Positions 10,655-44,205 of a stretch of DNA of 64,000 nucleotides are shown here, piece after piece (the first letter of the stretch is position 1; each line of letters opens with the position of its first letter). Location: IMG/VR virus record IMGVR_UViG_3300028591_000206, positions 1,941 through 65,940 of that record; one strand, given 5' to 3'. The position numbers and the translations under genes were made by a program. The notes under the pieces were generated by a model. That model saw only the letters and a list, made by a program, of their open reading frames with translations, did not search any database and was not told the origin of the DNA. Source of the stretch: a virus. Its lineage: Duplodnaviria > Caudoviricetes.

Positions 10655-10666
10655 ATTAATTCCTCT

Positions 10667-11918: not shown

Positions 11919-11935
11919 TTATTTATCCTCATAAA

Positions 11936-13780: not shown

Positions 13781-13781
13781 T

Positions 13782-18200: not shown

Positions 18201-21200
18201 TGAATTCATCTGTTGTCATATTCTTATATTCAGTAAGTGCAACAGAACCATTGGTCCATTCTGAACCATCATCTTCTATGTCTGGTAATGTTAAGTCACT
18301 AATACTTGCTTGGTCTAATTCTATGCGTTTTGTTATTTCTGCTAAATCTTCTGCTGTCTCTGCTCTATTTCTTCTTTCGTTTTCTTTCATTTTAATTGTA
18401 TTAGCATTATCAGTAACAGTGCTAGAACTTGTTCCAGCTGATCCACTGATATATTGAGCAGATAAATTTTTAGACATCTTATCCATAATTTTAGCAATTT
18501 TATTATGCCATTCTGGATCAGTAGCATATTCGTGACCGCTACTATTATGTCTCATTTGATTTAAAGTTTTCTGTTGATATTTACTATTGTAATAATGGTC
18601 AGCAATCCATTTAGCACCACCAATAATACCTTTATCTAAGCCAGAATCAAAAGTATGTGCAGATGCATAAGGAGAAGTATCAAATGCTCCGATTCCGAAG
18701 TAATTATTTTTCTTTCTTGCTATATTAGATGTTCCAGATGCAGATTCTAATATAGCATGAGCTAATATGTATCTAGGGTCTAATCCAGACTCTTCTCCAG
18801 CTTTAACAAACACATCTCCATGATTTTGAAATGGAGAGTCTGCTGGACAATATGAAGCAATAAAAGTATTTAATTCTGATGCAGATATTGGCGACCATAT
18901 ACCTAAGTCTTGGTCTATAGTTGCTTTTGAAGAATTTTGTTCTACTTCAGCTTTTTTCTTTTCTTCTTCAGCCTTCTTTTTATTTTCTTCTTCAGCTTTC
19001 TTTTTTTCTTCTTCTATTTTTTCTTCTTCTGTTTGTATAGCATCATCAATTTTTTGTTCAGAATCTTTTTCCTTATCTTTTTCATCTTTATTTTCTTCAG
19101 TAATATTTGTATCATTTGATGATGTGGTAGTTTCTGTTCCGTTATCTTTTCCATACGGATTTGCAGAAGTATATCCTTCAGTCGTTTCTAATAAAGATTT
19201 TTTCTTTTCTTCAATAGTTCCATTTTCATCTGGATATTGATTTCCATCACTATCATAAGGATTTGATTGATTAGTTCCTTGTTTTTCATAATCTCTTTGA
19301 AGAGGCATAATACGATAGACATATGCAATTTGAAAAGGAACTTGTTCTTCAAGAACTCCATTAACTTGATTTACATTTATAACAGCAAGATTGTTTTCTT
19401 TATCGTACCCAGTTGCTACACCAAACCATGATTTTGCATCGTTAGAGATAATATCTCCTCTTCTAATATCTTGTAAAGAAACTGCTTTAAAAATATCAAG
19501 AGAATCTACATCTTTTGCTTTGAGACGTTTAAAGTTATCTGGTAAAATACCCATGGTTTTAAGACCCCAAGTTATTAACCCAAGATCATCAAATTTTTCA
19601 CCACGATAATCACTAATTTCTCCTTCAGCAATAGCTTCGTAATGACATCCTATTTTCGTTCTTAAAAGATTAATAAAGCCAGTTGTTTTAGTATCTGTAT
19701 TTTCACCATCTCCATATGTAGGATTATATTTTTCTTTAATTATTCCACTTACACTTGTATTTCGTACTGGAGAAGAATATAAATTTGAAATTGACGAACC
19801 ATTACTTTGTTTTTCTTGATTCTCTTCTGCTTTTAATTCTTTATATATAGAAGTATATGTGTTTGGATAAAATACATAAAAATCTGGGTCAACAAATCCT
19901 TGATATACTGGTGATTCTGGAACGTTACCATTTTGATAAATTGTATTGCCACCAGCGTCTAACCAATTATTAGGAAGATTATTATTTGATTCACCTTTAC
20001 CATATGAAATATTTGATGGTTGTAATGGATAAGCTTCATAAGGTAATTGGTCTTTATTATTATATTTTCTAAAAGCATTTATGTTTGTTATTGCTTCATT
20101 TACTTCAGCATAAGTAGGAAGTCTTAAATCTGGGTATACTTCCATTCCAGTTCTTAACTTCCATTCAGCATAATTATCTTGATATATTTTAGTCATTAAG
20201 CCTTTTAATGACTGTTGTATGCATTGGTCTTTGTTATTACTACTTTCATTTTCAAGAGCTTCACCAGTTTTTTGTAATCCATCGATACTACTTTCTTTGC
20301 CATTAAATGGCATAAAACCATTTAATTCTTCTCTTCTGGATTGTGCAATATCATATGATACACATAGTAATCTAACTTGATATAATCCTGGAATACCTGG
20401 TACAGTATGTGTTTCAACTGATTCAATAGTACAGAACAAAGAACCACAGAAAGTAACAAAGTCAGATTCTATTTTAACAAATCCTATAGAGCCTCTAACT
20501 TTTGGATTACTACGGACCATTAAATCATTTTTGATTTGACATTTCTCTATTTTTCCAACAACAGTAACATCTGTAGTTTCAAATACAATATTAAATTGAG
20601 TATCAAGCCCTCCAAGATATTGTAAAGTTGGACTTGATGCTTCTGACATTTGAATAGATGTTAACATATTAGCGTAGCTACATTGAAATTCTGTTATGTG
20701 AACATCATAATCATTTGAATTAATAATTACATCATAATTTGATGGTTCAATTACTTGTGCAAGTATACTTTCTTCTTTTGTTACTGTAGCACTTGAATTA
20801 TTAACAATAGTAGCTAAAACATTTTCACTAAGTAAGCTTAATTTAAATGCTGTATGGTCACTATTAACTGGTAATGATTGAAGCTTTTTATATTCATGTT
20901 CTTCTGTAATAATACTTTGTATATAATACCTAAAAAGATCCCAATCTATTGTATGCTTAAACATCATATTAGGCATTTCAATATAAGGCATCATATCTAC
21001 TTCTTGTAATGTTAAGTGAGCAGTTAATGCATTTTGGAATCCTTCGATTGTTGAGATAACAATAGATTGTAAAGCAACGACAAAAATATTATATGAGTCA
21101 TTCAATAATTCATTACGTAATGGTAAGAAAGGTGTCAGTTTAAATTGAGCAAGCAAAGTCCTTAGACCGTCTACATAATAGAAATTAGAATAAGTATCTT

Positions 21201-21558
21201 TATCTTTATGTACTGGCCCAGGTACTTTATATCCATTGATTTCATCCATACCATCAAATACTAAATCTATTTGAATAGTACGTTTATGATATCCAGTTTT
21301 TTGCTTTTGAGAATTTTCTTGTCTTAATGTTTGGATATTTTGAGAAAATGACTCTGAAGAAACGTAAATAAATTCTGGTGGAATCATCATCGCAACATCG
21401 CCAATTGTTAAGTTATATTCATCATATAAATATCTATGATCATAACTTATATAATTGCTTTGCTCTAAAGGTTTAATCTGTCTCGCACTACTTGTGCGAG
21501 ACAGAGCATCAAACATTTCGAGACCTTGTTCAGTTGTAAAGTTAATTACATCAGACAT
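15226..21558 (-). CDS. 2110-aa baseplate hub / tail-associated lysin with degenerate NlpC/P60, GH73 glucosaminidase and SleB-like hydrolase domains
   Basis: GH73: 'GLDPRYILAHAILES...NNYFGIGAFD...YATDPEW' (~18480-18900); SleB-like 'IALTVATECEGE' (~18170); NlpC/P60-like 'FDDLG' (~19590); C-terminal hub-like region 'RVHLRMGYGSD...IINGTI...GQILCLGQPQVKPDDYLMIND'. Confidence 0.8.
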   Translation of the reverse strand: MSDVINFTTEQGLEMFDALSRTSSARQIKPLEQSNYISYDHRYLYDEYNLTIGDVAMMIPPEFIYVSSESFSQNIQTLRQENSQKQKTGYHKRTIQIDLVFDGMDEINGYKVPGPVHKDKDTYSNFYYVDGLRTLLAQFKLTPFLPLRNELLNDSYNIFVVALQSIVISTIEGFQNALTAHLTLQEVDMMPYIEMPNMMFKHTIDWDLFRYYIQSIITEEHEYKKLQSLPVNSDHTAFKLSLLSENVLATIVNNSSATVTKEESILAQVIEPSNYDVIINSNDYDVHITEFQCSYANMLTSIQMSEASSPTLQYLGGLDTQFNIVFETTDVTVVGKIEKCQIKNDLMVRSNPKVRGSIGFVKIESDFVTFCGSLFCTIESVETHTVPGIPGLYQVRLLCVSYDIAQSRREELNGFMPFNGKESSIDGLQKTGEALENESSNNKDQCIQQSLKGLMTKIYQDNYAEWKLRTGMEVYPDLRLPTYAEVNEAITNINAFRKYNNKDQLPYEAYPLQPSNISYGKGESNNNLPNNWLDAGGNTIYQNGNVPESPVYQGFVDPDFYVFYPNTYTSIYKELKAEENQEKQSNGSSISNLYSSPVRNTSVSGIIKEKYNPTYGDGENTDTKTTGFINLLRTKIGCHYEAIAEGEISDYRGEKFDDLGLITWGLKTMGILPDNFKRLKAKDVDSLDIFKAVSLQDIRRGDIISNDAKSWFGVATGYDKENNLAVINVNQVNGVLEEQVPFQIAYVYRIMPLQRDYEKQGTNQSNPYDSDGNQYPDENGTIEEKKKSLLETTEGYTSANPYGKDNGTETTTSSNDTNITEENKDEKDKEKDSEQKIDDAIQTEEEKIEEEKKKAEEENKKKAEEEKKKAEVEQNSSKATIDQDLGIWSPISASELNTFIASYCPADSPFQNHGDVFVKAGEESGLDPRYILAHAILESASGTSNIARKKNNYFGIGAFDTSPYASAHTFDSGLDKGIIGGAKWIADHYYNSKYQQKTLNQMRHNSSGHEYATDPEWHNKIAKIMDKMSKNLSAQYISGSAGTSSSTVTDNANTIKMKENERRNRAETAEDLAEITKRIELDQASISDLTLPDIEDDGSEWTNGSVALTEYKNMTTDEFNAIALTVATECEGETIACKMAMTQYIYDSIQCKYKGNGITAYIKNRDFTVDKTVQEIKDVEEAKACVQRVFQAGARWKKDYKVLAFTSMNNSNYANKYKNDKYEQIGSVNQHIFYGLKEESYSVGYNVAGHGVSEASSNSVTVARKYTINAVDLIDTNAFGKPIYIKSKHFDTHNSGVGKQWAEINNNLNRVNTAFVDDCQYSAKGRLVKAFPTFLFCILDDQAQWYDGRKLWTNYYVYKPVIDIQYHAANDMPTETAQITVTNTYHNLDRSSAALIKYSIAKDKEYNSVLDNMVSNATGKDFSINRWLYKNCGMLIGGLKITNRLIQMHSILFNHTKVREGARVHLRMGYGSDPLSLAPIINGTISGLTLGDQISITVTSDGHELIQSVTSDKTKDINNGALGLFGLGANQESSNIISEIMVKRTSWMNHLFFAKEWFEGSKYNIEHFGLYINDGERYFLQGGVDTGIYEQYDLLMNVYKAYDKDDFFNLARHFGYIYASPSVAGALGHDGEANIVFNQYNMTPWDVFQLCAQTAPEYLVKVEKYQFDSRLYYGLPFDLTKYRYDIINGTIYQECKANTQMHYIDSLTSIIENQISVSSRRSFTNAKVIYTRGKTPKATAVIHSDDTIDHSKQSTHIIDSSIVQDYLGLDSFNEFIGFRHGQRAARRLGISNLLYGWQQQYQGQILCLGQPQVKPDDYLMINDFYTALNGLALTREVIHSFNTRTGFTTSIIPGVIGFCPEQDSGNIELIAVFLKIYGEFTKYAQSRKLLKDNVERYVDLVTLMNKAQILEELGINGLQSQNKLFNNTKLWHTADTTATIAGDIAIAMTVYKFIRCCQNTGSIIKAIKSIYSVYKAADASFKTFTAAKSFFVVVRVISSINYVAKEFEAAEGTILAIGAASAPETLGIGFAVSVLITIMLEIAISTISSWVENRNVCVLLPLWWEGKPFIAGIKDGEKILLINDENAGSEENTGEEGVETDQDELSVEDN

Positions 21559-21563: not shown

Positions 21564-24500
21564 TTACTCCATTAATTGTGCAAACTTGTTTTCAAGCCAA
21601 TTATCTGTAATTTTAGAATTATCTCTAGTTATATTGACTTGACCTCCGTTCAACCCAACCGTATTCATTATATTTTGATATGATTTTGAATGTAATTTAT
21701 CATAACTTTGTGCTGATACTTTAAAATTAAAACCAGAATGAGAATCATGATAAATAGTTTTATTTTGTAAAATAGAAGGCGGTGCAATTTTTGGTGCTTT
21801 TGTTTGCTTTTTAACTAACTTAGCATCAGTAGGTTCATTATCATATTCTAGGCCATTTTTGTTATTAATATTTTTAACTTCGTTTTCTACTGACTTAGGC
21901 ATTTCAACATTTTTACTGTCTTTACTGTTGAATAAAGCATGTCCAGCAAGTCCAAGTAATGCTGTTCCTCCAAGTACCATTCCACCTATTTTAATGGTTT
22001 GACGAGCATCTGGAGATAAACTTTGTATTGATTCTCCAATACCACTTGCTAAAGTTTTTCTCTTTGTCTTAGAAGTAGCTTGTCTAGCAGATTCAATAGC
22101 ATTTTCTTTAGCTTGGCCAAGAAGTTCTTCTCCAGCTTGTTCTCCAAAAGCTGTAGCTGCTTCTGGATTAAATATTGCTTTGTAACTAGTTAATAAAGTT
22201 TCTTCATTTTTAAAATTAAGCACAGTTCCAGGAGAAACATTTTTCATGTGACTTAATATTTCTTTAGTATTAGAAGCCGCTAAATATTCTATAGAATCTC
22301 TTGGTAATATTTTCAACGCTTCATCTATTTCATTATTAACTAATTGTTGTTGTACACTTACTAAGTCACGAACTCTAGCACCAGTAAATTGACCATAACC
22401 AATTCTTACATTTGAATCTATTGTAGCATCGCCAAGTTTAATTTTAAAGTTGTTGTCTCTTGTAAAAGCATTCCATCCGAATTTATGTAGCATTTCTTCT
22501 TGAGGATTAGATGCTTTTTTAATAGAATCAAAAATCTTTTTAGTAGATTCCTTGACCTCTTTTTGCCAAGCTTCTTTTGCACTTGTAAATGCATTAGTTA
22601 TTGAAGTTTGTTTTTGAATTGTACTATTATAAAAATCTTCCGCTATTTTATTAATATTAGTATCTCTAATATTGATAAAATCATTAATTTCTTGAGAAAT
22701 TGCATTTGATAATTCAATGTCTTGTACCGATCTTGTTAAAAAATCTCTATTACCAATAGTAGCTCCGCTACCTTCAAGATACTGCACTACTGTATCTAAT
22801 GCATTATCTCCAGTAATTACAGATTTTCTTGGATGCCTAGCGATATCTTTATTGATTGAACGAATCAATTCTTTTGCGTTTGTAGCTTTAGTATTTATAT
22901 TACCATGCTCAATTCCATATTGAATACGTTCATGAAGATCACGTATTCTACGTTGTAATGCATCAGCATCATTGCCAGCTATATCAGACATTACAGTTCC
23001 AAGTTTTTTGTTTATTCCTCCGTAGCCTGGTATAATTTGATTTTGTTTAATCATTCGATTAAACTCTGATTTAAATTTATTACTTTCAAAATTGTCAAAT
23101 AACCACTGTAAATTATCCTCAGTAGAGACTGCTGCTATACGTCTAGATATTGCTAACCTAGAATCTTTTGAAAGTGATAAATCTCTAATATTTAAGTTAT
23201 GTTCTGGAGTATTTGGATTAGTAACATCAAGTAATCTACGTTTATGATTAGTTTTTATATTTTCATTTAGTTCTCTAATAGTTATTGCTGGTTGACCTTT
23301 TCGTTGTCCTAAATAAATAGTTTGTTTATCTATTTCTCCAGTAGCAAAATCATAGCTAAATCCAAATGGTCTTGGAACACGATTTTTTTCACCAGTTTCT
23401 CTAAAGCCTTCAAAAATAATGCCTTCAAAACCTGTATCTGTTTGATAAGTTAATATATCTCCTTGCCTAATTGATCTACCAAACATCAAAAACTTATCAT
23501 CAGTACGTGTTTTATAAGCTTCAAGTAACATTTTTTTAGTAGGTAAGTCAAGATCGCTCCCTTGCATAAATTGTTCAAGTTTCTCTGGTGTCATATCTAA
23601 AAGACTAGGAGCAATATCTGGCATTCCATGTCTAAAAACACCTTGATAACCTTGATATGCATTTTTCATTTGAGACATTTCATACAATGCACTAATGTAT
23701 GCGCTACCTAAATCAGCATCGCTTACTGTCTTTCCCTCTTTAATAGCATCACCAACAAGTGCATTCCATTCATCAAATGTTTTAGATAAGATATGTTGCG
23801 ATATTTGATTATTAGACATTTCATTAAATGCATCACTAGTAAAAAATATTCTTCTTGACCCTTCAACTAAACTATCAAGAGCACTTAATCTTTTTTTGAT
23901 ATCAATATTTTCTGCACCATTTGCATTAGCAAATAATTTAGTTACACCTACTCTCCATGCACTTGAATTAGTAAGTTTTTCAGCATCATGAACGTGTTTA
24001 GTATCAATACCTTTTTGTTCAAGAATTGTAAGAAGCCCTCCTGGTTCATCGTTAAATGTATATAACATTTCACGAATTTGCCTTAATTTTGTCAGTTCAT
24101 CACTTCTATCTTCAGCTAGACTTTGCATATATTGCATAGCGTTTCTTATTTCAAGATTTGGTTTAGAGTAATTACCAATATACTCTTTAGCAAATCTTGC
24201 TTGAATCGCAGCTTTGATCATATCTGGATTATGTATTGAAGAACCTAACACTTCATCAAAAGCTTTATATGCTTTTCTCATACTAGATGAATGAGCAATT
24301 AAAAGTTCTTTTATATCACTATATTCATCTTTTTCAAGCACATCCAACATGTCTTTAGGCATAGCTCCAAGAAATTTTGAAGCCGCTCTATTATATTCTG
24401 TACTTTTAAGGTCTTTTAATAAACTAGCTTTGAAATATGCTTCATCGCCGTATCTATATTCTTTGATAGAATCTTTAAGTGAATTTGCAAAAACATTTAA

Positions 24501-27500
24501 GTTAAATGAATTCATTTTATCAAATTGTGCATTTAACCTAATAGCTTCTTCTGAATTTTTAGCAAGTAATCCACCATTAGCTAAGAATTTTATAAATTCA
24601 TTATCTCCATCAAAATCAAGGTTTTGAAAAACACTAAATTGAGGGCCAAGGAATCTTATTTCTTTGCCTTTTATAGTTTCATCAAAATATATTCTAACTG
24701 GAAGGATACCAGTTTCATTAAAGAAAGGATAACGACCAACCATTCCAAGTATGCCGACTTCTTTTGCATATCTTTTACCAAGGTCATCAAAAATAGATTG
24801 GACATCTAATAAAAACTTTCTCTTAGATTCTTCAGAAAGTTTTCTATTAAGTGATTTAACAACAGTATCATCAAGACTTTCAAGACTACTACTTACTTTA
24901 AAATTATCACTTTTAAGATAATCTTCTAGTCTTTTAAAGAATATATTAGTAGCTTTTATATGCCTTTCTCCATTTTGCATTTTAATATTAGGGTCTAATA
25001 ACTTATGCATCGCATCTCTTGTTTTATTCATCCATTCTTTATGTTCCGTACCATCAAATGTTTGAAAAAACTTTTCTTCAAATATCTTTTCAAATTCACT
25101 ATTACTAATAATAAAATCAGATATTTGTTTTTCAGTTCTGCTTAAAGCATCGTAATTTTTTAAACCTCTTTTCTGACTAGAGAAATAATCTCTTAAAATC
25201 TCCATGCCAATATTACCAGGGTCCATTTCTGTTCCACGAAGTATATCTTCTCCAACAACAATGGCATTTTCAATAACATTACCAACTAATTTACCGTTTT
25301 TATCAAAATGTCTTAGATATTGTTCATATAAACGATTATTAGATGTTATGTTTAATAGACTAACAACATCATCTGTTATTTCAGCATTTTTAATGCTCAT
25401 TTTAGTGGCATTAAGTAAGTCATATCTGTTTTTATTTAATTTTAAATATTTATCCCAATCATCTGGATTAATTGCTTGATTCATATCAAGAGCATGAGTA
25501 AGATTATATGTTGTTTCTCTAAGTTCTCTTATTTCAGACACTGGTAATTCTAATGTTGGAACTATAGCATCTTTAGCTAATGCACCCGATGAATTTGGCA
25601 TCTTCATTTTATAAAAGGCTTTAGTAACTAATGAATCTTTATTTCCAGTACTTAATTCATCATCATAAGCATCAAATAAATCATTCAATGCGTCTTGAAT
25701 AGCTTTTGAATTATCTGTATTAGGTTTTAAGTCTTGTAGTTTTCTAAAAAACCTCATTGTTTTTTTAGTAGACTCTCCAAGAAACATTTCTTCTGAATCT
25801 GTGCGGACATAATGAAATGGTAATACTATTCCAGTTAAGTTTTTGTTTCCTTTAAATTCAAATTTACCATAATCTGAAAGGTCTAAATAAAAACTATTAC
25901 TATTAAATGCTAATTGGACATTATTATTATTCTGAATAGCTAAAGCTTTAATGTAATCTGTTGGTTCAGAATTTACTTTAAAGATAAAGTTAGCATATGA
26001 TTCTGCGCCACCACCTTTTGGTATGTTAGATAATAAATCTTTAGCATTTACATTAATCATATTCTTTTTTGATACATCAAGAGCTCCATGAACATAATCA
26101 AAGGATTCTAATAATCCAGTGAACATATTCATCTCATCTTTAGGGCTTAATTTACCTCTTCTATTTCTTACGATATCAGCCCATACTTTATTGATTTGTT
26201 TATAATCTTTCTTATTATAAATTAAACCAGCAATATTTTTATCATATTCTCCACTCTGAATATTTTCTCTTATTAATTCTGCAAGTTCTGCTCCATAACG
26301 TTCTGCTTTTTTATCATATTTAATTTTATATGTAATTTTTCCATCTATTATTTCTCTTATATTTGTTCTATCTTGCATTGAAAGAGCTTGATAAAATCTT
26401 TGGTCAATTTTAAAAGCTTGACCTTGGAAAGTATTCATTTGTTGTCTTTGAATAGATTGCATTGCAATATTATTCTTTTCAAATGAATCTATAATATTAA
26501 TTGCTTCTTGAGCTTTAGAATCTTTACTTAGTCTTAATCTATCAGTAAGTTCGTCAAGAACATTTGTTGCACCATTATCTAATGGATTATCAAACATCAA
26601 TGCGTCCTGTACAGGGTTATATGATAAATGACTCATTAATGTAGAACCATCTTTAAATTTAATAGCTCCACTACGTCCATCAAAAGAGCCATCCATGAAT
26701 GAATATAAAGTATTAATATCTTCTTCACTCTTAAATACTGATCTAATAATGTTCCATCTAGAATCTATAGCTGTATCGCTTAAGTGTTTTATAATATTAT
26801 TATTGCCTATTAAAACAGTTTTTAATCTAGTATCATTTGTTCTTGTAAAAGCATCAAAAACAGCATCTGAATATTGATTCATTAACGCAACATTCTTTTT
26901 TAGAGAACCTTGGTTTTCTAAACCAATAGTCGTCATTAAATCAATAATTTCTTTTTCTCTTTTAGCTGGGTCTAATGAAGTATAATAAGATAATGTCTCA
27001 ATTGTTGCTTTTTCTTCTCCAAACATGCCTTTAAAACCTTCAAGCTGTCTTTCCATTACAGCCAAGGTTTTTCCCATATTTGCAAGTTCTTCAGCGTTTT
27101 GTTCTGTAAACTTATGTATAGTCTGACCATTATATATAATATCTTGCCAGTGTTTTGAACCATTTTTACTTTTTACAAGTCTACGTCCTATTACAGTTCC
27201 GTTTTCAACTTTATTACCAACAAGTCCAGATAATATTCCAGATGTTTCTCTTATTTCTGGTTCTGAACCTAATTCAAAAATAGAACGTACTTGTGGCGAT
27301 TTAACAGTTTTAGGATCGCCTAATGCGAAGAAATCTTGATTAGCAAGAGAAGGTCTCATATAAGCTTTGCCTTCATATGTATTAATGTCTTTTGCCATTC
27401 TATCATATAGTTCAGATAAAGCTTTTTGATTAAGATTCCCAAATTTATTTTGTAAAAATACTAATGCTTCATCTTTTCCATGTCTAATTTCAGCATCACT

Positions 27501-30500
27501 AATAGACTGTACTGCACCTATAATATTTCTACGAGATGCAGTACGAGCATTGAACTGTTCACCAGCAGCACTAATAACTTGTTTATCCATGCTTTCGATT
27601 GAATCGAAATATTGTTTTGATGTATATAAATCACCAAAATGTATTCCAAGATTATTTTCAAGTTCTTGAGGATTATCAAAGAACATTTCATCTAATCTAT
27701 AACTTCTATAATTATCCCTTTGTGAATATGTAGGACGCATTTGAAGAGATGACCTACTATTATTCATCATTGCTGGAGCATAATTAACAAGCATTGTAGT
27801 ATTATGTGCAAAAGACTCACTATAAACAGCATTTAAATGAACTCTATTAGCAATAACATCTAATCCATAAGCTACTTCATCAGAAACATATCCATTTGAT
27901 TCTGAAGCTTGTGCCATAATTTGTAACAAACTTTTATCTCTCAAAGCACGAATTGCGTCAACTTCTATTGGGTCAAGAGATTTATATTTATTATTTAAAA
28001 TATTTTGTATAACGTTAGAATCAGCTCCTATACCACCAGTTTGAATAGTTAAATGTTTTTGATAAAAACCTTTAAATGGTTCAGAATTATATACTTTTTC
28101 TAATGGATTTTTTAAATAAAGATTTTTAGTGTCATAATTATTATGTAAATCATATTGTTCTGCAAATGCTTTATAGATACCTCTAATAGCATTTTCTGCT
28201 TGTAATGATGACTCTGAAGAAGCAGCTGTATATGCTTTATCAGTTGTTAACAAACGCATAATATCTCTTATACCGATATTTCCCTCTCCAGGGTCAATAG
28301 CGATAGCATGAGCATAACTTACATCCTTTGTTGATACTGAATGCATTCTAGCTAATTCACCACGTAAATTATAAGTTCCACTTATTTGAGGTGAAGCTTC
28401 TTCTGTCATTCTAGAAATATTAGGATTATTAAACTTAGCATTAGCTAATCCAAAATTTTCTTCTGAAGTAGCTGCATAGGCTTCATCTGCTCTTTGTCTT
28501 ATACTTGTAACAAAAGAACTGCCTTGATCTTTTATGCCTCCTCTAAGTACGTCATCTTTTTCATATACATTAAAAGAAAATGTATCATATCTATAAAAAT
28601 CATCTCCTTGTTTTACAAACACAGCTCTAGCTCCATGTCCTTCGTGCAGAACTCCGTTTTTATCAATATACGAAGATAATGCTTTGATATCTGCGTCTTC
28701 ACCAAGATCAAATTGTTTAAGATATGGTATTTCAAAATAAGATGCCATGCCTGTTAAAGCATCTTTTACTTGTCTATTAGTAGCATTAGGCTTAAGATTG
28801 GATAATGTATCAACTGTTTTAGAATAATATTTATCTGTAGTAAAAATTGCAAATGCAGATGCTTCTTCTCCTTGAGAACGATAAAATAAAGGTCTAATTT
28901 GTTTACTAGGCTCTAATCCTTCATTAAAGTTTTTAATTGCTGACTTCCATGTACTTTTAGCATTAGAATAGTAAATCATTCCAAATTCTGAAATGGCCTG
29001 TTCATTATAACCCATGCCAGATAATGTATTTGATATCCTTGAAAAATCATTATCAAATGATCCAGAAATAAGAGTGGTTCCACTTAAATGCTCTATTACA
29101 TTATTGAAAGACGAAACTAATTCTTTAGAAAGAGAATTGCCACTGACATTACTCATTTCTGAAGTTGCACTTTCAATGAAACGTTTATTATCTTTATTGA
29201 TTAATTTATTGATTAAACTTTCATCAATGTTATAAGCTTCAGCTAATTCTTGTCTATTGAATACTTTTTCTTCAAGACTTTCTTGTATAAATCCTACAGT
29301 ATCATTTCCTAAATCAGTTACATCTGATAAGTCTGCACGTAAATGACTAACAATAGCATCTGCTGTATGGAAAGGATTTTCAACCGCTCCATAATTATCT
29401 TGAATAGTTTTAAAAGCTTCTTTGGATAATAAGTCTCTTTCACGTAAATTTTCTGCAACTTTAATAAGCCTTGCAGAATTCTGTTTTCCTGTAAGGTTCT
29501 TGTCTGTAAAAGCTCTTAATAATTGTGTTGCACCATTACTATTCTCACTAATGTCAATTCTCGCAGATGAGCCATTACCTTTATCAATTGATACACTGAA
29601 TAAATCATGTATACTATATGAATTCCATTTAGATGGAGTAGTACGTGTAACAGAATTAGATTCAATATATAATTTTTTTAATTCATTAAATGCTATTGTT
29701 TGAGAAAGACTATTATTTAAAGGTTCAAGATTTTTATATGAATATTCAAAAAAATCTTTGTTCTTCTCAAAAATATCAAAAGCATGTTCCATTTTAAGTG
29801 GAATGTCATATGCTTCAATAGCAAGGTCATGATGACTAAGTTTTGTAGAACGTTTAGTTGTACTAAATACATTAACTACATTAGTTAAATCATTCTCTCT
29901 TGCATATTTAATAATATTCTCAGCATTATTTTCAGCATTAATGTTTTTAAGTAATACTCTTGATGTATTAATCTTATTTCCATTAACATCAAAAACATTC
30001 ATGCTTGAAACAGCGTCATCTGATAATGATGCTAAGTCTTGATATGCTTTATAATATTTTTTAAAAGACGTAAATCCACCATCGTCTTTAGTTACTTGAC
30101 CATGTTCAAAGAATCCATCTATAACTCTTCTAGCAACATCTCTGTCATGAACTGCTGCTTGTAATCCAAGATTAGCTTCTGATTTATTAACTAAAGTAGT
30201 ATATTTTTCAAAATATCTCTGTGCGTCTTCTTCATTCGCGAATGCTTTATATAAAGTCATATCTTTATGATGCACAGATTGTAATTTTACAATATATTGA
30301 TTGGCTGTATCTTTTATTGTTTTAGTTTGTTTATTTACATCTTCTATACTAAATCCAGTATAATCAGATTGGCCAAATCCAGTAAAAGTCCAATATTCAT
30401 TAGAGACTTGATGGCCATTGGTTACTTTATCACTAACAACAAGTAAATCTTGATGTCTGATATTACCTTTAGCATTAATTTTTATATAAGAGTCTTCAAG

Positions 30501-31769
30501 CTTTAATGTATTTGGATTAGATTGAACGTTATGTATTACATCTAAAGCTTTATCCGTAATGTTAAAATGAGTAGCTCTTGAATAATTGTTGGTTTCAATA
30601 TCGTTACCTATGTTTTCTATAAATCGTAAAACAGCAAGGTTATCTTCATATGCTATGTGAGCTTGCCCTTCTGCGTAAGTAGTTCCGTTTAACATAGCTT
30701 CTGTAACAGCTTCAAGAGAATTTAATCTAGGATTAGTAACACTAGGATTGACTTGTTTTACAATTTCACTGGCCGCAATATTATTTTGCTGTGCATATGC
30801 TTTAGCAGCATGATATGTATCTGCATATTGCAAGTTTTCTTGTAGTTTTGTTAGATTATGCTTATTAGCATATCTATTTAAAGTCTTTACATCAAAAGAA
30901 AGATTTTGTCCAACTATTACGCTGTTCTTTTTTGTTGTAAAGTCATTTAAATATTCAATTAAACCTTTTATTTGATCATCTCTATCTGTATTATAATGAG
31001 CGGCCATTGCTTCTATACCAGATTTAATATCTTCAACACTATCTGGTTTAGAAACATTTAATTGTTCAATAAAAGTAAATGTTTTATTATTCCATTCTCT
31101 TTCAACAGTTCTAAATCCATTAGGACCTAATGTACTATGACGAGAAGCTCTTTCCATGGCTGATGCTTCTGTTGAAGTGAGAGTTTCTCCTTTTATTTTC
31201 TTTTGTAAAACATCTTCAAGCCATTGTTTTTGTTCAGAATCGATACCAAAAAAGAACGATCCTTGTGGGTCAGCAATTTGATGAGCTCTGCTAAAATTCT
31301 TACTTACATAACCTTTATGGTGTTTTATTGTAAAAGCAATTTCTGTAATACCAGCAACATCAATAGCTCTATTATGAGCTACTCCAGCTTCATCAAGATA
31401 ATTAGTAGCTTCATTTATAAAATCACCAATTGTCTCTGTATCAAGCGCAAGAATATTGCCTCCATTTTTTAAAATATTATCAAGGTCAAACCAAGCTTGT
31501 CTGTTACGCCATATATTAGAAACATCATAGTTTTTAACATAATTAAATTTATTTGGACCTTGAAAGTCTTTTAAATTACTAAAATTAGCAAGCTTTGTAG
31601 CCCAGAATACATCACGAGCTTTCCAATATTCTGTAAAATATTTATCTGGTTTAGCTCCAATGCTGTTATAAAAATATTCTTTATTCATCCAGTTTAAGCT
31701 AGGATTATTATCAGTATAAGCAAATGTATCTGGTGCTTCATATTGACTTCCAAATAAATTAATAGGCAT
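21564..31769 (-). CDS. ~3400-aa putative virion RNA polymerase (two-barrel/DPBB type, single chain) with N-terminal DEDDh exonuclease and C-terminal hydrophobic helix
   Basis: NLDFDGD at 24603-24623, preceded by GRYP at 24726-24737 (beta'-type R-x-P ... NADFDGD spacing); beta-like segments YEGKAYMRPSLA (~27345-27380) and FKGMFGEEKAT (~27005-27035); ExoI DTET (31431-31442), ExoII GQNLSFD, ExoIII HIAYED. Start moved from TTG 31784 to ATG 31769, which has a GAGGAG RBS. Confidence 0.75.
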   Translation of the reverse strand: MPINLFGSQYEAPDTFAYTDNNPSLNWMNKEYFYNSIGAKPDKYFTEYWKARDVFWATKLANFSNLKDFQGPNKFNYVKNYDVSNIWRNRQAWFDLDNILKNGGNILALDTETIGDFINEATNYLDEAGVAHNRAIDVAGITEIAFTIKHHKGYVSKNFSRAHQIADPQGSFFFGIDSEQKQWLEDVLQKKIKGETLTSTEASAMERASRHSTLGPNGFRTVEREWNNKTFTFIEQLNVSKPDSVEDIKSGIEAMAAHYNTDRDDQIKGLIEYLNDFTTKKNSVIVGQNLSFDVKTLNRYANKHNLTKLQENLQYADTYHAAKAYAQQNNIAASEIVKQVNPSVTNPRLNSLEAVTEAMLNGTTYAEGQAHIAYEDNLAVLRFIENIGNDIETNNYSRATHFNITDKALDVIHNVQSNPNTLKLEDSYIKINAKGNIRHQDLLVVSDKVTNGHQVSNEYWTFTGFGQSDYTGFSIEDVNKQTKTIKDTANQYIVKLQSVHHKDMTLYKAFANEEDAQRYFEKYTTLVNKSEANLGLQAAVHDRDVARRVIDGFFEHGQVTKDDGGFTSFKKYYKAYQDLASLSDDAVSSMNVFDVNGNKINTSRVLLKNINAENNAENIIKYARENDLTNVVNVFSTTKRSTKLSHHDLAIEAYDIPLKMEHAFDIFEKNKDFFEYSYKNLEPLNNSLSQTIAFNELKKLYIESNSVTRTTPSKWNSYSIHDLFSVSIDKGNGSSARIDISENSNGATQLLRAFTDKNLTGKQNSARLIKVAENLRERDLLSKEAFKTIQDNYGAVENPFHTADAIVSHLRADLSDVTDLGNDTVGFIQESLEEKVFNRQELAEAYNIDESLINKLINKDNKRFIESATSEMSNVSGNSLSKELVSSFNNVIEHLSGTTLISGSFDNDFSRISNTLSGMGYNEQAISEFGMIYYSNAKSTWKSAIKNFNEGLEPSKQIRPLFYRSQGEEASAFAIFTTDKYYSKTVDTLSNLKPNATNRQVKDALTGMASYFEIPYLKQFDLGEDADIKALSSYIDKNGVLHEGHGARAVFVKQGDDFYRYDTFSFNVYEKDDVLRGGIKDQGSSFVTSIRQRADEAYAATSEENFGLANAKFNNPNISRMTEEASPQISGTYNLRGELARMHSVSTKDVSYAHAIAIDPGEGNIGIRDIMRLLTTDKAYTAASSESSLQAENAIRGIYKAFAEQYDLHNNYDTKNLYLKNPLEKVYNSEPFKGFYQKHLTIQTGGIGADSNVIQNILNNKYKSLDPIEVDAIRALRDKSLLQIMAQASESNGYVSDEVAYGLDVIANRVHLNAVYSESFAHNTTMLVNYAPAMMNNSRSSLQMRPTYSQRDNYRSYRLDEMFFDNPQELENNLGIHFGDLYTSKQYFDSIESMDKQVISAAGEQFNARTASRRNIIGAVQSISDAEIRHGKDEALVFLQNKFGNLNQKALSELYDRMAKDINTYEGKAYMRPSLANQDFFALGDPKTVKSPQVRSIFELGSEPEIRETSGILSGLVGNKVENGTVIGRRLVKSKNGSKHWQDIIYNGQTIHKFTEQNAEELANMGKTLAVMERQLEGFKGMFGEEKATIETLSYYTSLDPAKREKEIIDLMTTIGLENQGSLKKNVALMNQYSDAVFDAFTRTNDTRLKTVLIGNNNIIKHLSDTAIDSRWNIIRSVFKSEEDINTLYSFMDGSFDGRSGAIKFKDGSTLMSHLSYNPVQDALMFDNPLDNGATNVLDELTDRLRLSKDSKAQEAINIIDSFEKNNIAMQSIQRQQMNTFQGQAFKIDQRFYQALSMQDRTNIREIIDGKITYKIKYDKKAERYGAELAELIRENIQSGEYDKNIAGLIYNKKDYKQINKVWADIVRNRRGKLSPKDEMNMFTGLLESFDYVHGALDVSKKNMINVNAKDLLSNIPKGGGAESYANFIFKVNSEPTDYIKALAIQNNNNVQLAFNSNSFYLDLSDYGKFEFKGNKNLTGIVLPFHYVRTDSEEMFLGESTKKTMRFFRKLQDLKPNTDNSKAIQDALNDLFDAYDDELSTGNKDSLVTKAFYKMKMPNSSGALAKDAIVPTLELPVSEIRELRETTYNLTHALDMNQAINPDDWDKYLKLNKNRYDLLNATKMSIKNAEITDDVVSLLNITSNNRLYEQYLRHFDKNGKLVGNVIENAIVVGEDILRGTEMDPGNIGMEILRDYFSSQKRGLKNYDALSRTEKQISDFIISNSEFEKIFEEKFFQTFDGTEHKEWMNKTRDAMHKLLDPNIKMQNGERHIKATNIFFKRLEDYLKSDNFKVSSSLESLDDTVVKSLNRKLSEESKRKFLLDVQSIFDDLGKRYAKEVGILGMVGRYPFFNETGILPVRIYFDETIKGKEIRFLGPQFSVFQNLDFDGDNEFIKFLANGGLLAKNSEEAIRLNAQFDKMNSFNLNVFANSLKDSIKEYRYGDEAYFKASLLKDLKSTEYNRAASKFLGAMPKDMLDVLEKDEYSDIKELLIAHSSSMRKAYKAFDEVLGSSIHNPDMIKAAIQARFAKEYIGNYSKPNLEIRNAMQYMQSLAEDRSDELTKLRQIREMLYTFNDEPGGLLTILEQKGIDTKHVHDAEKLTNSSAWRVGVTKLFANANGAENIDIKKRLSALDSLVEGSRRIFFTSDAFNEMSNNQISQHILSKTFDEWNALVGDAIKEGKTVSDADLGSAYISALYEMSQMKNAYQGYQGVFRHGMPDIAPSLLDMTPEKLEQFMQGSDLDLPTKKMLLEAYKTRTDDKFLMFGRSIRQGDILTYQTDTGFEGIIFEGFRETGEKNRVPRPFGFSYDFATGEIDKQTIYLGQRKGQPAITIRELNENIKTNHKRRLLDVTNPNTPEHNLNIRDLSLSKDSRLAISRRIAAVSTEDNLQWLFDNFESNKFKSEFNRMIKQNQIIPGYGGINKKLGTVMSDIAGNDADALQRRIRDLHERIQYGIEHGNINTKATNAKELIRSINKDIARHPRKSVITGDNALDTVVQYLEGSGATIGNRDFLTRSVQDIELSNAISQEINDFINIRDTNINKIAEDFYNSTIQKQTSITNAFTSAKEAWQKEVKESTKKIFDSIKKASNPQEEMLHKFGWNAFTRDNNFKIKLGDATIDSNVRIGYGQFTGARVRDLVSVQQQLVNNEIDEALKILPRDSIEYLAASNTKEILSHMKNVSPGTVLNFKNEETLLTSYKAIFNPEAATAFGEQAGEELLGQAKENAIESARQATSKTKRKTLASGIGESIQSLSPDARQTIKIGGMVLGGTALLGLAGHALFNSKDSKNVEMPKSVENEVKNINNKNGLEYDNEPTDAKLVKKQTKAPKIAPPSILQNKTIYHDSHSGFNFKVSAQSYDKLHSKSYQNIMNTVGLNGGQVNITRDNSKITDNWLENKFAQLME

Positions 31770-31780: not shown

Positions 31781-34700
31781 TCAATAATAGTTTAAATTTC
31801 TAATTTGATTAGAAACTTCATTTCGAGAATCTTCTTGAATATTAAAAGTAGAGAAATCGTTATTAATTCCATTCATATATGATACATTAACGTTATCCAT
31901 TCCAGTATTGTTTAATAAACGAGTAAGCTGTGCTTGAACTTTTTTTGGATCATTTTTTATATTTAATTTAGGTATAGGTATATTTGTTTCATCAGCTTCA
32001 CGTTTATTATCAGTCCAAATATCAAATTCACCTGGGTCTAAATTGTTTAAACCTACCATTTTAATTTTAACATGATCAAGATTGGATTCTTCATTCCATC
32101 CAGACCAGTTTTCATCTGGTAAAGCATGTTTCTGGAAATATTCTGTAAGAGAAGGTTTTTCATCAACATGCATACCCCATGAAGCCTGTAATGCTCTTCT
32201 TAAATAGCTAGGTGCAATTCTTAGTATTTTTTGTTTTTCTTCTTCTGGAGCTTCAACTAATTTGGAATAATACTGTCTTTCTTTTTTAGGTAATGCAGAC
32301 ATTATGTTTCTTATATCATCACCTGGTTCATATCCATACATGGTACGATCAGCTGCTTGTTTATAAGATATTGCTTTTATGGCATTTAATGGTAATTTTT
32401 CTACTTTTCTATCGTTAGAAATTTCAGCAAGTTCACGATTAATTGCCCTAATTACTTCTTTTTTAGATTGATCTTTTTCTTCGTATTTAGGACTTCCATA
32501 TTTAAAATTATAATTTCCACGATGTTTGAAATCAAGTTTCACAAGACGCTTATAATTGTTCAGCTCTTGTCGTTTAGCTTTATTATCTTTTCCTTTTTGT
32601 TCTTGTTTTTCTATATAAGCTTCAACATCAAAATGATCTCGTTTTTTAGCTAATTCTTTGTATTTATTATATAATTTAGTGTTTTTAACATATTTTAGTG
32701 TATCAATGTAAGTATTCATTTCTTCTTGTTGTCTACGTCTTTTTGGTCTAAATTCACGATCCTTGTCTGACATTAAATGATGTATAGTAGTTCCTATTGC
32801 TGGTATAGTTGCACCGAAAATAGCACCTACAAATTTACCATAAGGATTTTTACCAGTCATACTGCCAAGAAATGCTCCTACCATTATTGCTCCTATAGGA
32901 TGCATAGAAGATAATTCGTTTGTAGTAGGAATAACATAATCTCTTATTGGATGACTCCATGATTTAAAATCTTTATTATAAACTTCTCGTTTACGGTATT
33001 GTTCATAAGGACTACGTATCTGGAAAAATTTATCTCCGATAAATGGAAGTTTAGCAGCGCTATGTGTTAATGTTTCCATCATTGAACCAAAAGCAATACT
33101 TCCTTCAGAATATCTTGCATGGATACCAGCTGGAGAGTTATCATTTTCTTTTTCTTTAGCTAGGCCTTTTTTAAGCATACGTCTGTTAAGATTAGTTCCT
33201 TTAACATTAACAATAGCTCTGATTGATTGAGTAGAGTCTTTATTATATTTGTTTCTTTCGTCTGCATCATATTGAATAGTAATACTTTGACCAGGTTTAA
33301 GATATTTTCTCAATTCATCATTTGCAGCTTCATTCATAGTTTTGCCAGTACGTTTTGTACGCATCTTACCAGTTTTTTTATTTTTTTCTTTTTTTTCTTT
33401 TACTGTAGGAGCATATAATGTACTATTTGATTCAGAAACATTAATACCAGCAAATTTAATAGCATGTTCTTTACCATATTCATTAACGATAATGGTATTA
33501 TTATCAATAATATCTTTAACAGTAACTTTTTCTGATTTTAAATTAGATGTTTTAAATTTATAATCATATACTCTTAAAGGTTCTTTTTGTTCTTGCATAC
33601 GTTCACGCGCTGCTTTAACTTCTCTCTTTTCTTTTTCTGTTAAATGAGCGTGTGATATTTGAGACGAAATATCTTTAAACTCTTGAGAATATGGTGCTGT
33701 GTCAGCTAATATTTTATATTTATCAACAAGAGAATATAAATCTCCTCTTGAAATTTCACCAGATTTAATACCGTTATAGATATCCATTTTTGCATCATTA
33801 AGATTTTGGATACTTGAACGTAAATCTTTTTTATTAAATTTTATTCGTGCTTTATATAATTCTTCTGGATTATCTTGATTGTAATAATAAATATAGCCTC
33901 TACCTTTAGTATTCTTCATAGCGTATAAATCATAATTCATTTCATAATAATCTTGATTTCTTACGTTATGGCCTTTTTTAAGAGTTTCAAATTCTTTAGA
34001 ATCAACACCACGAATATTAATTAAAGTTTTACCAGTACTTGAATGATAATCTTTTATTACAGCATCAACAACGCCAGTAATATCATGTTGTTCATCATGG
34101 AATTTTGTTCTTGCTTTTAATAAAACTTTATTATCTCTAAAATTATCTAAAATTCTAGATACAAATTCTTCTATTGGATGTAAATCTTGTATTTCATATT
34201 TATCATTTATGATTTCTTGTGGTCTTTTATCTTTCTTTAATGCTTTTATATTGTTTTCTTGTTCATATGTTAAATTTGTATCTTGATGTAAAAAGTGTCT
34301 TACATGAGCTGAACGTGAATTAACAAGCATACTTGCACTAATGTTAAATGAAAAATCAATATTATTTAATTTTTCATAAGCATCTCCTGGTAGTCTTTCT
34401 TCACCATTCATTATTTTAGAATATGGGTCTCCATGTAAATAATCAATAAAATAATTAGAACCTGGCATCCAAGTAGGCATTGTATTTCTAATAGGATTAA
34501 GATATTCTGTATTCTTATCTTTTTTGTGTATAAAACGTCTAGCAATTTCAGAAAGCTCTCCTCCTAATCCTCCAAGATTTGTATCCCAAAATGAACGATT
34601 AGCGCTATATGTATAGCTTGAATTTTCTACTTTTACAGAACCTACATTTTGAGTTCCAGTAAACATTGATTGAATTAAAAATCCTTTAAGACCATATATA

Positions 34701-37700
34701 TTACCAATGTCGTTAAATTCTTCTCCTATATTCCATAAAATATCATTATTTGCTTTTATAGGTTCTTGTTGTTGATATCCTCTTTCGTATTCATTAATAT
34801 CAACTCGTTGATTAGTACCATATATTTTATTTAATGAATAGTGTTTTATTTCTTCATTTACTTTATAAAGATTAAGATTTTCTGGAACATCAACAATAGA
34901 AATACTACCAGATGGTGTAACGTATACATCTAATGCAGTATTATAACGGTCATAATCTCTATAAGGTAATGATGATGTTTGTAATGGACTAGAATATTCT
35001 TTAGCTTTAGTAAATAAAGTTTGTCTAAAGTTATCAAGATTAGAATATGGTAATGTACGAACCGGTGTAGCTTGTCCATTATTATAAGCAACAGTATATG
35101 AACGTAATGCATTATCGTATAAAGGAGTTTGTTTAAACGATGAAAATGTATTATTTACAGGAACAGCATTAGTAGAATTATTTAAAATTTGTTGAACTAA
35201 GAACAAATCTTGTAGTCTTAATCCAGCTGCTTTATGATATTGTTCTTGTGTTCTTGCATTAATTTGATTAAATGTACTTGTATCTACAAATGCTCTTTCT
35301 ATAGCTTTTTGTATATCAGAAATAAACCCACCTTTTGCTTCTGCAAAATTGGATGATTGCCCAGTCATTAATAATTGACTAGGTTTTTCATCTTGTGGAT
35401 TTACTGGTTTTAAAGTACCGTCTGGATTCCAGTACTCTTTGTGCATTTTTTTACGATATATTTGACCTATAGTACCAGAAACTAAAGGACCAATTAATGG
35501 TATATTCTCACCTTTAGGTGCTGTCTCTGGATAAGGTCTATCGTTTCTATGTTTCTTATCCCAATGATGAGGATCAGTAATAAAGTGTCTAATCGGAGCT
35601 AATGGACTAACTAAATTAGGATACCATACGTTTTGATAGTATTCTTTTCTAGAACCATACATTGTATCACTAAATTTAGTATCAGCTTCTATACGACGAT
35701 ATATATTTGGTCTCCAATGGTCTATTTTTGCACCAGTAAATGGAGTATTTGAAACAGACCAATAACGATTTTTACGTATTGGATCATAACCTTTTTCTAT
35801 GTATTCTTTTCTTTCTTCTGCTGTTTGTCCTAAACCAAGTTGATATATAATAGGTAATTCAGTAAAGTTATCAGAACCTGGAGTCATTTCTTGAAGATAT
35901 TTAAAGATTTTTGTAAATCCTAATGTATCACCTATTCCATGTATACCAATATCTATAGGTTTAACAATATCACGCATTAATGTTTTAGTAAGTGTATCTG
36001 TTTTGCCTTCTTTTTTTTCTTTATTGTTAGTAAATATTGGTTCAGAAAAATAATCTATCATTCCAGGAACTTGTGTTAGCATATATACAGGCAATGCTCT
36101 TTTTAGCAATAAATTTTGTACTAAGTCTTTAGTAGAATGTTTAGAATCAAGACTAAGTCCTAAATTTACAGTAGCTAATCCAGTATCAAGAGCGTTAAAA
36201 ACATCATATAACATTGAAGAACTTTCATTGAAATACTTATTCATATTTCCTTCTGCATCAAATCCAGCAAAAAGTTGTCCAACGAATTCTTTTATATCTT
36301 CTGTAAATTTTTCTGTATTTTTATCAGTAATGTCTTGAAATAAGTCTTGTATATTTTTACCTTGTTTAGTAATAACAATATTTTTACCACGAATTTTTAC
36401 GCCATTTTTAGTAATATAATCATCAAAACCTTTACCAAATGCCATATTATATGATTTATCTCTAATTTCAGACAATGCTGTATCATAGTCTTTAAATTGG
36501 AAATTGTTAGTTCTAAATGCATTTGATCGTGTTGCGTTGTATAATAAGTCATCAAACAAATTATCTACATTGGACATTTCTCCATAGTCAAAGTACATAC
36601 TGCTTTTCAAATCTTGAACATTTTTAAATTCTTGAAAGCCAATATCAAAATGTCTACCGAATTTATTTCTTATTCTTTCTATTGGTGACATTGTAAAACC
36701 AGATACTGCTTCATATTCTTCTGCTGTTAAATTTGGCGAATAATATTTTTTAGCTTTATCACCAATTTGTTTTACTGTATCACTTACAGCTTCATTCATA
36801 CTATCTCTATTTAAGTCATATCCGCCCATCGTACGCATTATAGCCACAGAATGAGGTAACTTAAATTCTTTATCAGCATTTGTAATATCCCATGCATGAT
36901 ATCCAGAACCAAGAAACTCTTCGGTTCCTTCTGTTCCTAAAGCATATAAATTTCCACGAGAAAATAACAGATGAAATGTTTCATCTGGTTTATTAAACTT
37001 TTTTTGTAAAGATGTACTTATATCATCGCCAAGACGACTACCTTGACCAGAAATATATGGAGAATATGCATCAACACCATTTATTAATGCAAATGGAACA
37101 TCTCTTCGATGAAATATATTATCAAACGGAGTAACTTTAATCATACTATCTATTGGGTTAAATCCAAGCACTGGCAGACCAAAATCTTTTCTTAATGAGT
37201 CAGAAAAAAAAGATAGTGCATCTTTGCCCATCATATAGTTTATGATTTTATCCTGTTGTTCATTTATATTAATTGATTTATCAATGATAAATCTTTTCCA
37301 AACATCATCGAAATTACCAAGAGTACCAATACGATTGCCATCAGCATATTTATGTCTAGCATCAGATAAAAATTCTTCTATTGTACTTTTAATAGTTTTA
37401 CCGTTTTGCCCTATTGTTTCATTAATGTTAAGATTGTATTTATCAAATAAGATTTTTTCATTAAGGCCTTCTTTAAATACCAGTTCGTGTTTTTGTTTAT
37501 CAAAAGTTTCAAAAATATCTCCTAAAAGAAGAGCTCTATAATTTGTTCGTTTTAATTGTGCTTGAGCTGTTTCATCACTTAAAGATAATGATTCTACAAA
37601 ATCTTTCATTAAGTTAGCACTTGCTTTATTACCAGCACTACCTAACTTATTATTAGAAATATCTTGTGTAATATTATTCATTGTTAAGATGCTTTGAACA

Positions 37701-41477: not shown

Positions 41478-41483
41478 AATTTA

Positions 41484-43103: not shown

Positions 43104-43129
43104 GTTATCTTTCTCTCCTTTCTTTTAAA

Positions 43130-43158
43130 ATTATAACAAAGGATAATATTTAATACAA
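43130..43158 (-). promoter_or_regulatory. Sigma-A-like promoter TTGTAT-N17-TATAAT with extended TG
   Basis: Minus strand ttgtat taaatattatcctttgt tataat, between the tube terminator and the RBS of the 539-aa gene. Confidence 0.55.
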
Positions 43159-43169
43159 GAAAATAAGGC

Positions 43170-43205: not shown

Positions 43206-43245
43206 AATATATTTATGAGAGGTATGAAAAAATTAGATTTTTACT

Positions 43246-44175: not shown

Positions 44176-44205
44176 ATCTTTTCCTCCTTGAATTATTTTA
44201 TGTAT

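Follow-up and report, generated by a model that had tools for sequence, protein, structure and literature searches.

A giant tail-module protein with a predicted single-chain two-barrel RNA polymerase core in an uncultured relative of Bacillus phage 0305phi8-36

The stretch analysed here (the window) comprises 64 kb of the 65.9-kb IMG/VR viral contig IMGVR_UViG_3300028591_000206, which is estimated to be 31% complete, has a GC content of ∼ 0.30 and carries all its large open reading frames (ORFs) on the minus strand. Its source is an uncultured gut phage of ∼ 210 kb, a distant relative of the Bacillus jumbo myophage 0305phi8-36. The tail module of this phage includes a giant gene (21564..31769, minus strand, stop codon included) for a protein of 3,401 amino acids (aa) that very probably contains a complete RNA polymerase (RNAP) of the cellular two-barrel type, together with an exonuclease-like domain. 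The findings described below suggest that this phage brings an RNAP of its own into the cell it infects.

The giant gene and its domain map

The true start of the gene is the ATG at 31769 and not the listed TTG at 31784: it is preceded by GGAG at a distance of 8 nucleotides and, immediately upstream, by the TGA of the preceding gene. The resulting length of 3,401 aa is that of the database copy and agrees with the end coordinate given in the initial annotation, which had been made by a model from the sequence alone. Residue numbers throughout this work refer to the 3,406-aa reading from the TTG at 31784. Each of the motifs quoted in the initial annotation was found where it had been placed: NLDFDGD at residues 2388–2394 (24603–24623), GRYP at residues 2350–2353, with R2351 exactly 39 residues before D2390, YEGKAYMRPSLA at residues 1470–1481 (27342–27377) and FKGMFGEEKAT at residues 1584–1594 (27003–27035). 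The protein can be divided as follows, from the N-terminus to the C-terminus.

30615..31487 (-): DEDDh (DnaQ/RNase T-like) exonuclease-like domain, approximately residues 100–390, from motifs and weak profile matches
26985..27383 (-): predicted beta-like barrel (double-psi beta-barrel B, DPBB-B), approximately residues 1468–1600, with YEGK (1470–1473), the candidate metal-B acidic residue D1490 and a two-lysine hairpin
27009..27032 (-): K1585...K1592 (KGMFGEEK) of that hairpin, candidate counterparts of the basic pair of the beta barrel (Rpb2 K979/K987, QDE-1 R738/K743)
25653..26984 (-): inter-barrel connector in a clamp-like position, residues 1601–2044, with invariant K1666/H1667 and R1796
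25560..25652 (-): first strands of the beta'-like barrel (DPBB-A), residues 2045–2075, with K2049, S2051, P2063 and S2065
24768..25559 (-): helical insertion of ∼ 265 aa within DPBB-A, residues 2076–2339, from the secondary structure of the model
24585..24767 (-): catalytic half of DPBB-A, residues 2340–2400, with R-Y-P (24726–24734) and DFDGD (24603–24617)
23985..24227 (-): helical region after DPBB-A, residues 2520–2600, with invariant K2533/G2537/S2540 and E2589/Q2590/D2594/K2596/H2597
21930..22001 (-): Gly-rich hydrophobic helix, residues 3262–3285, from a hydropathy scan
21567..21767 (-): conserved C-terminal domain of ∼ 60–65 aa that ends with ...D-N-S-K-I-T-D-N-W-L-E-N-K-F, from conservation

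The helical region at residues 2520–2600 is where the equivalents of the bridge helix and the trigger loop would be expected. The invariant sequence R1350-P1351-T-x-x-Q1355 ('MRPTYSQR', residues 1350–1356, 27717–27737, minus strand) precedes the beta-like barrel by ∼ 120 residues and falls in a part modelled with a predicted local distance difference test (pLDDT) score below 50; it echoes the 'MRPSLA' sited just after YEGK.

In the N-terminal domain the DEDDh motifs come in the expected order (ExoI D115/E117, ExoII N294/D298 and ExoIII H376-x4-D381), and these residues are invariant in 26 family members, as well as in a set of eight sequences that includes the Bacillus phage homologues discussed below. 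Beyond the motifs, the support for a DEDDh assignment is weak but concordant. The region had no Pfam match; a comparison with Escherichia coli DnaQ by hhalign gave a weak match (E 0.015) at ExoII only, and the sub-threshold PDB matches of the N-terminus were to a 3'-5' exonuclease, DnaQ and RNase T (E 0.4–0.9). Among the five clusters listed by an Atlas feature search (0.92–0.93), four had RNase_T on 19–99% of their members and one had no common family, while in the Atlas tally the ten best family-bearing matches all belonged to one family or clan. Such an exonuclease could serve in genome-end processing, in degradation of host nucleic acids or in proofreading of transcripts.

Conservation and predicted fold of the polymerase core

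A word-index search yielded 29 homologues of 3,146–3,648 aa on contigs of up to 213 kb. An exhaustive profile search of 1.84 billion representatives extended the family to 83 clusters (set at 50% identity and coming from ruminant-gut and other metagenomes), nearly all of 3,000–3,800 aa and always with the core at about residues 1,400–2,700; this search returned family members only and provided no bridge to canonical RNAPs. To count conserved residues, the 89 members of at least 2,000 aa, many of them only 20–25% identical to the window protein, were aligned by hmmalign to a hidden Markov model (HMM) of the core.

The active site of two-barrel polymerases is defined by a small set of invariant residues, namely an Asp triad, an Arg and a Pro in the Rpb1-type barrel and one Asp and two basic residues in the Rpb2-type barrel; in Rpb2 itself the latter are D837, K979 and K987, the basic pair corresponding to R738/K743 of QDE-1 (PMC2919709). 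The giant protein has the signature of a beta'-type DPBB, DxDxD with R-x-P ∼ 33–45 residues upstream, in the form of R2351-Y-P2353 and D2390-F-D-G-D2394. R2351, P2353, D2390, D2392 and D2394 are present in all 88 aligned rows; conservation of DFDGD in homologues, on which the initial annotation had made its proposal depend, is thus complete for the Asp triad. In the beta-like barrel, K1585 is kept in 86 of 86 rows and both E1591 and K1592 in 85 of 86, and the D1490 position is occupied by Asp in 64 rows and by Glu in 15. K1666/H1667, R1796, K2049, S2065, G2537, S2540, E2589, Q2590 and K2596 are also nearly invariant. These motifs are not due to chance: they are kept across family members some of which share only 20–25% identity. 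The family has a conserved candidate for each invariant two-barrel residue, with the residue-by-residue correspondence in the beta-like barrel being a putative one.

Similarity to known polymerases was hardly detectable at the sequence level. Searches with the giant protein against Pfam, PHROGs and PDB (phmmer, and a profile search with the whole-length alignment) gave nothing informative, its core had no match by megablast or tblastn in 50,697 phage records, and the PF05183 profile found no match in the protein. Two of the comparisons that the initial annotation had called for revealed no kinship at the profile level: hhalign showed no significant relationship to phi14:2 gp66 (E 0.41) and reached only E 0.13 with the YonO-like RNAPs of the same phages (see below), in an alignment that paired RYP...DFDGD of the giant with RSP...DFDGD of the YonO-like enzymes. 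The sole sequence-level hint was a weak match (12.6 bits, E 0.017) of Pfam RNA_pol_Rpb1_2 in a 23%-identical homologue, on '...IRFLNPAMSVYTNVDFDGDTTFLHL', in the segment that corresponds to the catalytic half of DPBB-A. This near-absence of sequence links agrees with the literature, according to which two-barrel families share little outside the DxDxD region (PMC10770324).

The link to two-barrel RNAPs appears instead in the predicted structure. An AlphaFold2 model of residues 1441–2640, built with 26 family sequences, is a compact mixed alpha/beta fold with a mean pLDDT of 75.8 and a predicted template modelling (pTM) score of 0.75. A Foldseek search of PDB with this model found nothing below E 1e-3, and all 50 best matches were bacterial RNAP beta' chains or QDE-1. 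In an exhaustive comparison with 48,161 representative chains by VIA-align, ranks 1–16 were all two-barrel RNAPs, among them the following (with the two values given for each match).

Pol II Rpb1: 9.3, 312
QDE-1 (root mean square deviation 3.8): 9.3, 255
vaccinia Rpo147: 9.1, 303
Pol I: 9.1, 334
archaeal A': 8.9, 272
RDR2: 8.6, 299
Mycobacterium tuberculosis beta': 8.3, 337
African swine fever virus (ASFV) RNAP: 8.1, 283
P74-26 gp62: 7.6, 262

With the multisubunit beta'/Rpb1 chains, the alignment does not begin before model residue ∼ 459; the single-chain enzymes QDE-1, RDR2, P74-26 gp62, phi14:2 gp66 and P23-45 gp96 are aligned from model residue 23–30 to 1161–1183, and the RNAP alignments in general run as far as model residues 1139–1194. 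The single-chain alignments span both predicted barrels, including the N-terminal beta-rich segment with YEGK and the two lysines, in line with the suggestion of the initial annotation that both barrels are present in one chain. Isolated DPBB domains (Cdc48-N and designed DPBBs) align to model residues 623–988, that is, residues 2063–2428 of the protein; therefore, the beta'-type barrel consists of strands 2063–2075 and 2340–2400 with the ∼ 265-aa helical insertion between them. PolD and T7/N4-type polymerases were not among the structural matches, which is not evidence of their absence. Residues 1441–2640 thus appear to be linked to two-barrel RNAPs through their predicted structure and not through sequence, and we have little doubt that the two-barrel core is real.

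A search of BFVD with the core model retrieved a probable member of the Bacillus-phage homologue group (E 4.6e-10). The same search also matched a 'Minor tail protein' of the uncultured Siphoviridae sp. ctnpt50 (E 6e-6), an uncharacterised protein of Acinetobacter phage ME3 (E 1.7e-4), a protein of Microcystis phage MaMV-DC (E 5e-3) and crAss-like giants. The ME3 proteins in the tail slot, ME3_35, ME3_36 and ME3_37, had no DxDGD and no HMM match. These model-based matches hint that tail-associated two-barrel cores may be more widespread.

The tail module, cultured relatives and a second polymerase

The phage is a myovirus, as the initial annotation had stated, because comparison with PHROGs revealed in the window a baseplate wedge protein, tube-like proteins and a pair of paralogous sheath proteins. 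By sheath and hub, the nearest cultured relatives are the Bacillus phages 0305phi8-36, KLEB27-3, WH1 and Edson and the Moorella phage MTATph1. The corresponding genes of 0305phi8-36 run from the sheath paralogue through sheath, tube, tube paralogue, chaperonins, gp145 and gp146 to the gp147 hub. The genes that flank the giant gene in the window are the following.

31781..38347 (-): upstream gene, 2,188 aa, homologue of 0305phi8-36 gp145, a virion protein by mass spectrometry
15226..21558 (-): downstream baseplate hub/tail lysin, 2,110 aa, with a glucosaminidase domain, homologue of 0305phi8-36 gp147

A BLASTP comparison of the upstream protein with gp145 showed 31% identity over 1,581 columns (E 0); this protein is not the counterpart of the tape measure. 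With a gp145 homologue upstream and a gp147 homologue downstream, the giant gene fills the slot of gp146. As a separate observation, the 2,188-aa protein has Gly-rich hydrophobic segments at residues 38–56 and 1812–1855.

For gp146 of 0305phi8-36, the annotation reads 'hypothetical tape measure protein; identified as virion protein by mass spectrometry'. The tape-measure assignment was made by Hardies et al. from the length of the tail; according to the same paper, conservation in relatives is confined to the final 60 residues of gp146 (PMC2147016). In line with that observation, a motif at the extreme C-terminus, D-x-S-x-x-[DN]-x-x-W-L-x-x-[KQ]-F, is common to the window family, KLEB27-3 gp034, WH1 gp095 (in a looser form) and gp146, the individual matches being weak (E 0.057 and 0.019). 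The gp146 protein thus resembles the giant in its slot, its giant size and its extreme C-terminus but differs from it in having no DxDxD; it matched neither the core profile nor the full-length family HMM, exonuclease region included, and hhalign gave no significant result. Neither the core-profile search nor an unfiltered full-length hmmsearch found the core in the genomes of 0305phi8-36 and Moorella phage MTATph1, the former negative being weak because the same search missed KLEB27-3.

The unfiltered HMM search with the full-length profile did identify distant homologues of the giant in cultured Bacillus jumbo phages: KLEB27-3 gp034 (2,434 aa, 'structural protein', gene at 11463–18767 of the KLEB27-3 stretch examined) and WH1 gp095 (2,515 aa, 'virion structural protein', gene at 11285–18832 of the WH1 stretch examined). 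The same gene is found in Edson (PV796108.1, 93203–100594). The exonuclease domain is matched in both KLEB27-3 gp034 (E 5e-7) and WH1 gp095 (E 8e-5); the former, in which the HMM search detected the C-terminal motif as well, carries RYP...DYDGD and the latter RYP...DHDGD. Taken over all three phages, Edson included, the homologues show the exonuclease motifs, RYP...D[YH]DGD and the C-terminal WL..KF motif. The lysine motif of the beta barrel is not recognisable in the WH1 and KLEB27-3 homologues, nor is the second lysine in those of KLEB27-3, WH1 and Edson. All three proteins are labelled structural or hypothetical and none as a polymerase, and the basis of the 'structural' label is unstated; we found no paper on KLEB27-3 or WH1, nor any that describes a polymerase in this gene group.

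Four complete relatives of the window phage are available (208–218 kb, two of them with terminal repeats). All four, like 0305phi8-36, encode a separate PF05183 YonO/RdRP-type RNAP of ∼ 900–1,750 aa with FRSP...GADFDGD (one relative has two matching ORFs); no such gene is present on the window's own contig, which is a fragment. The four genomes have no T7-type gene and no Rpb1_2 match above the Pfam cut-off, the one sub-threshold match being that in the giant's homologue. Since every complete relative has a separate YonO-like RNAP, the lineage carries two unrelated-looking two-barrel polymerases. In Thermus phage P23-45, the tape-measure-fused virion RNAP gp96 transcribes the gene of the smaller, non-virion RNAP gp64, a scheme that the giant and the YonO-like enzyme would mirror by analogy.

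Two side observations concern these genomes. A hairpin, TTGCGACC-TATC-GGTCGC followed by (A/G)ATG(A/G)A, occurs in five copies on one strand at 7240–13592 of the 210-kb complete relative, among small genes that adjoin the YonO-like gene and form a putative early region; elsewhere in that genome there is a single match, with two mismatches, and there is none in the 64-kb window. This motif might serve one of the phage's RNAPs as a promoter or as a terminator. In the window, the sheath and tube genes are duplicated (40034–49388, minus strand), as they are in 0305phi8-36 (ORF137/139 and ORF140/141). The two sheath paralogues measure 528 and 889 aa and the two tube-like proteins 309 and 539 aa; a peptidoglycan-binding/endolysin-type segment is present in the 539-aa protein.

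Proposed role and alternative readings

The reading that we favour, with a probability of roughly 0.6, is that the giant is a multidomain virion protein with a central single-chain two-barrel RNAP (approximately residues 1440–2640) that is delivered through the tail and transcribes the first phage genes. From the observed motifs, conservation, predicted fold and synteny we infer catalysis, packaging, ejection and the genes transcribed along the following lines. The beta-like barrel would supply K1585, K1592 and the acidic D1490 and, after a connector of ∼ 450 residues, the beta'-like barrel would supply R2351-x-P2353 and the Mg-binding D2390-F-D-G-D2394; the next helical segment would probably provide the equivalents of the bridge helix and the trigger loop. 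The C-terminal part may anchor the protein during assembly into the interior of the tail or baseplate, from which contraction of the sheath would expel it together with the DNA. The enzyme could then transcribe the first phage genes without the host RNAP, probably including the gene of the YonO-like RNAP, so that early transcription would pass on to that enzyme. Association with the virion and ejection seem probable to us in view of the synteny, of the hydrophobic helix, of the C-terminal module that the giant shares and of the known precedents.

A bolder version, which we put forward only tentatively and consider rather less likely than its negation, would extend this to a family of tail-delivered enzymes in 0305phi8-36-like jumbo myophages, KLEB27-3, WH1 and Edson included. 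Here the RNAP, fused to a live DEDDh exonuclease in the protein of the tape-measure slot, would enter with the DNA end on contraction; the substrate of the exonuclease would be the incoming genome or host nucleic acid, and a host-independent relay to the YonO-like enzyme would start from the polymerase. On this version, contractile-tailed phages of Gram-positive hosts would gain their first virion RNAP of this fold, and a two-barrel RNAP would for the first time be joined to a dedicated exonuclease.

Delivery in the virion is challenged by the gp146 comparison and by the protein itself: the mass-spectrometry support for a virion protein belongs to gp146, which lacks DxDxD, and not to an RNAP-bearing member, and a globular core of ∼ 1,200 aa is an awkward cargo for a tail. 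Both points weigh against our proposal and would suit a genuine two-barrel RNAP that is not packaged but made during infection, as a non-virion transcriptase or a primase, its place in the tail module being incidental. We nonetheless consider this unlikely. The giant gene is co-oriented and tightly packed between the gp145 and gp147 homologues, shares the C-terminal motif with the virion protein of that slot and encodes a Gly-rich hydrophobic helix, as do its two giant neighbours. Furthermore, the relatives already have a separate YonO-like RNAP, the usual non-virion type, and packaged two-barrel RNAPs have precedents in P23-45 and the crAss-like phages.

Somewhat less likely still, in our view, is a core that makes something other than mRNA, either as a proofreading DNA polymerase or primase with a fused 3'-5' exonuclease (cf. 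PolD) or as an RNA-dependent RNAP like QDE-1 and RDR2, both of which are among the structural matches. PolD was not among the 50 best structural matches, which is weak evidence; the phage enzymes known for this fold (YonO, gp66, gp96 and gp64) are DNA-dependent RNAPs, and a location in the tail module suits early transcription more than replication. Finally, it is highly improbable that the giant is just another tape measure, or an internal protein of the tail, with a fortuitous DFDGD and fold or with the relics of an inactivated enzyme, as its core is predicted to be compact and not an extended helix, its top structural matches are all RNAPs and the near-complete invariance of all eight catalytic positions over 88 members at 20–50% identity indicates selection on catalysis, which is hard to reconcile with a relic.

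A single-chain two-barrel RNAP delivered in the virion, even one fused to a tape measure, is of a kind already known. The tape-measure-fused virion RNAP gp96 of P23-45 (PMC10770324; PDB 8H2M) has no detected sequence similarity to the giant and comes from a siphovirus of a Gram-negative thermophile, whereas the window phage is a jumbo, contractile-tailed member of the 0305phi8-36 lineage. The RNAP is N-terminal in gp96 (DFDGD at 779) but central in the giant (DFDGD at 2390), where it follows the exonuclease-like domain and ∼ 1,000 residues; gp96 is clampless and flat, whereas the giant has the 450-aa connector and the 265-aa insertion. The gp66 protein of phi14:2 (PDB 6VR4) lacks a DEDDh domain and does not lie in a tape-measure slot, and its phage is a podovirus-like member of the Crassvirales with hosts in Bacteroidota. 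The YonO/RdRP family (PF05183; SPbeta YonO, 0305phi8-36 gp99, QDE-1) differs in its profile, which the giant does not match, and in the R-to-D spacing, which is 39 in the giant and 45 in the YonO-like proteins. The giant is distinguished from the known kind by four features: its family is independent in sequence, the phages that have it are jumbo phages with contractile tails from the 0305phi8-36 lineage, its polymerase core is central and a DEDDh-like domain is fused to it.

To our knowledge, virion-packaged two-barrel RNAPs are limited to a few systems (the multisubunit enzymes of phiKZ/AR9, crAss-like gp66 and P23-45 gp96), and we are aware of no description of an exonuclease fusion for this fold. 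If our proposal is correct, these systems would be joined by an independent family of 83 clusters from phages with genomes of 208–218 kb. A cellular-type RNAP in the tape-measure slot would then not be peculiar to Thermus siphoviruses, and a two-polymerase relay from the giant to the YonO-like enzyme would be implied in a lineage where the latter has been thought to be the sole phage RNAP. This would also raise the mechanical question of how a folded polymerase core of ∼ 130 kDa passes through a contractile tail or sits inside it. As distant homologues are present in cultured Bacillus phages, the hypothesis is directly testable.

The sequencing runs that contain this DNA, with no RNA run listed among them, are labelled sheep gut metagenomes. 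One has all the sampled words and is probably the source; the runs of a second study have 0.29–0.46 of them and bovine gut runs only small shares.

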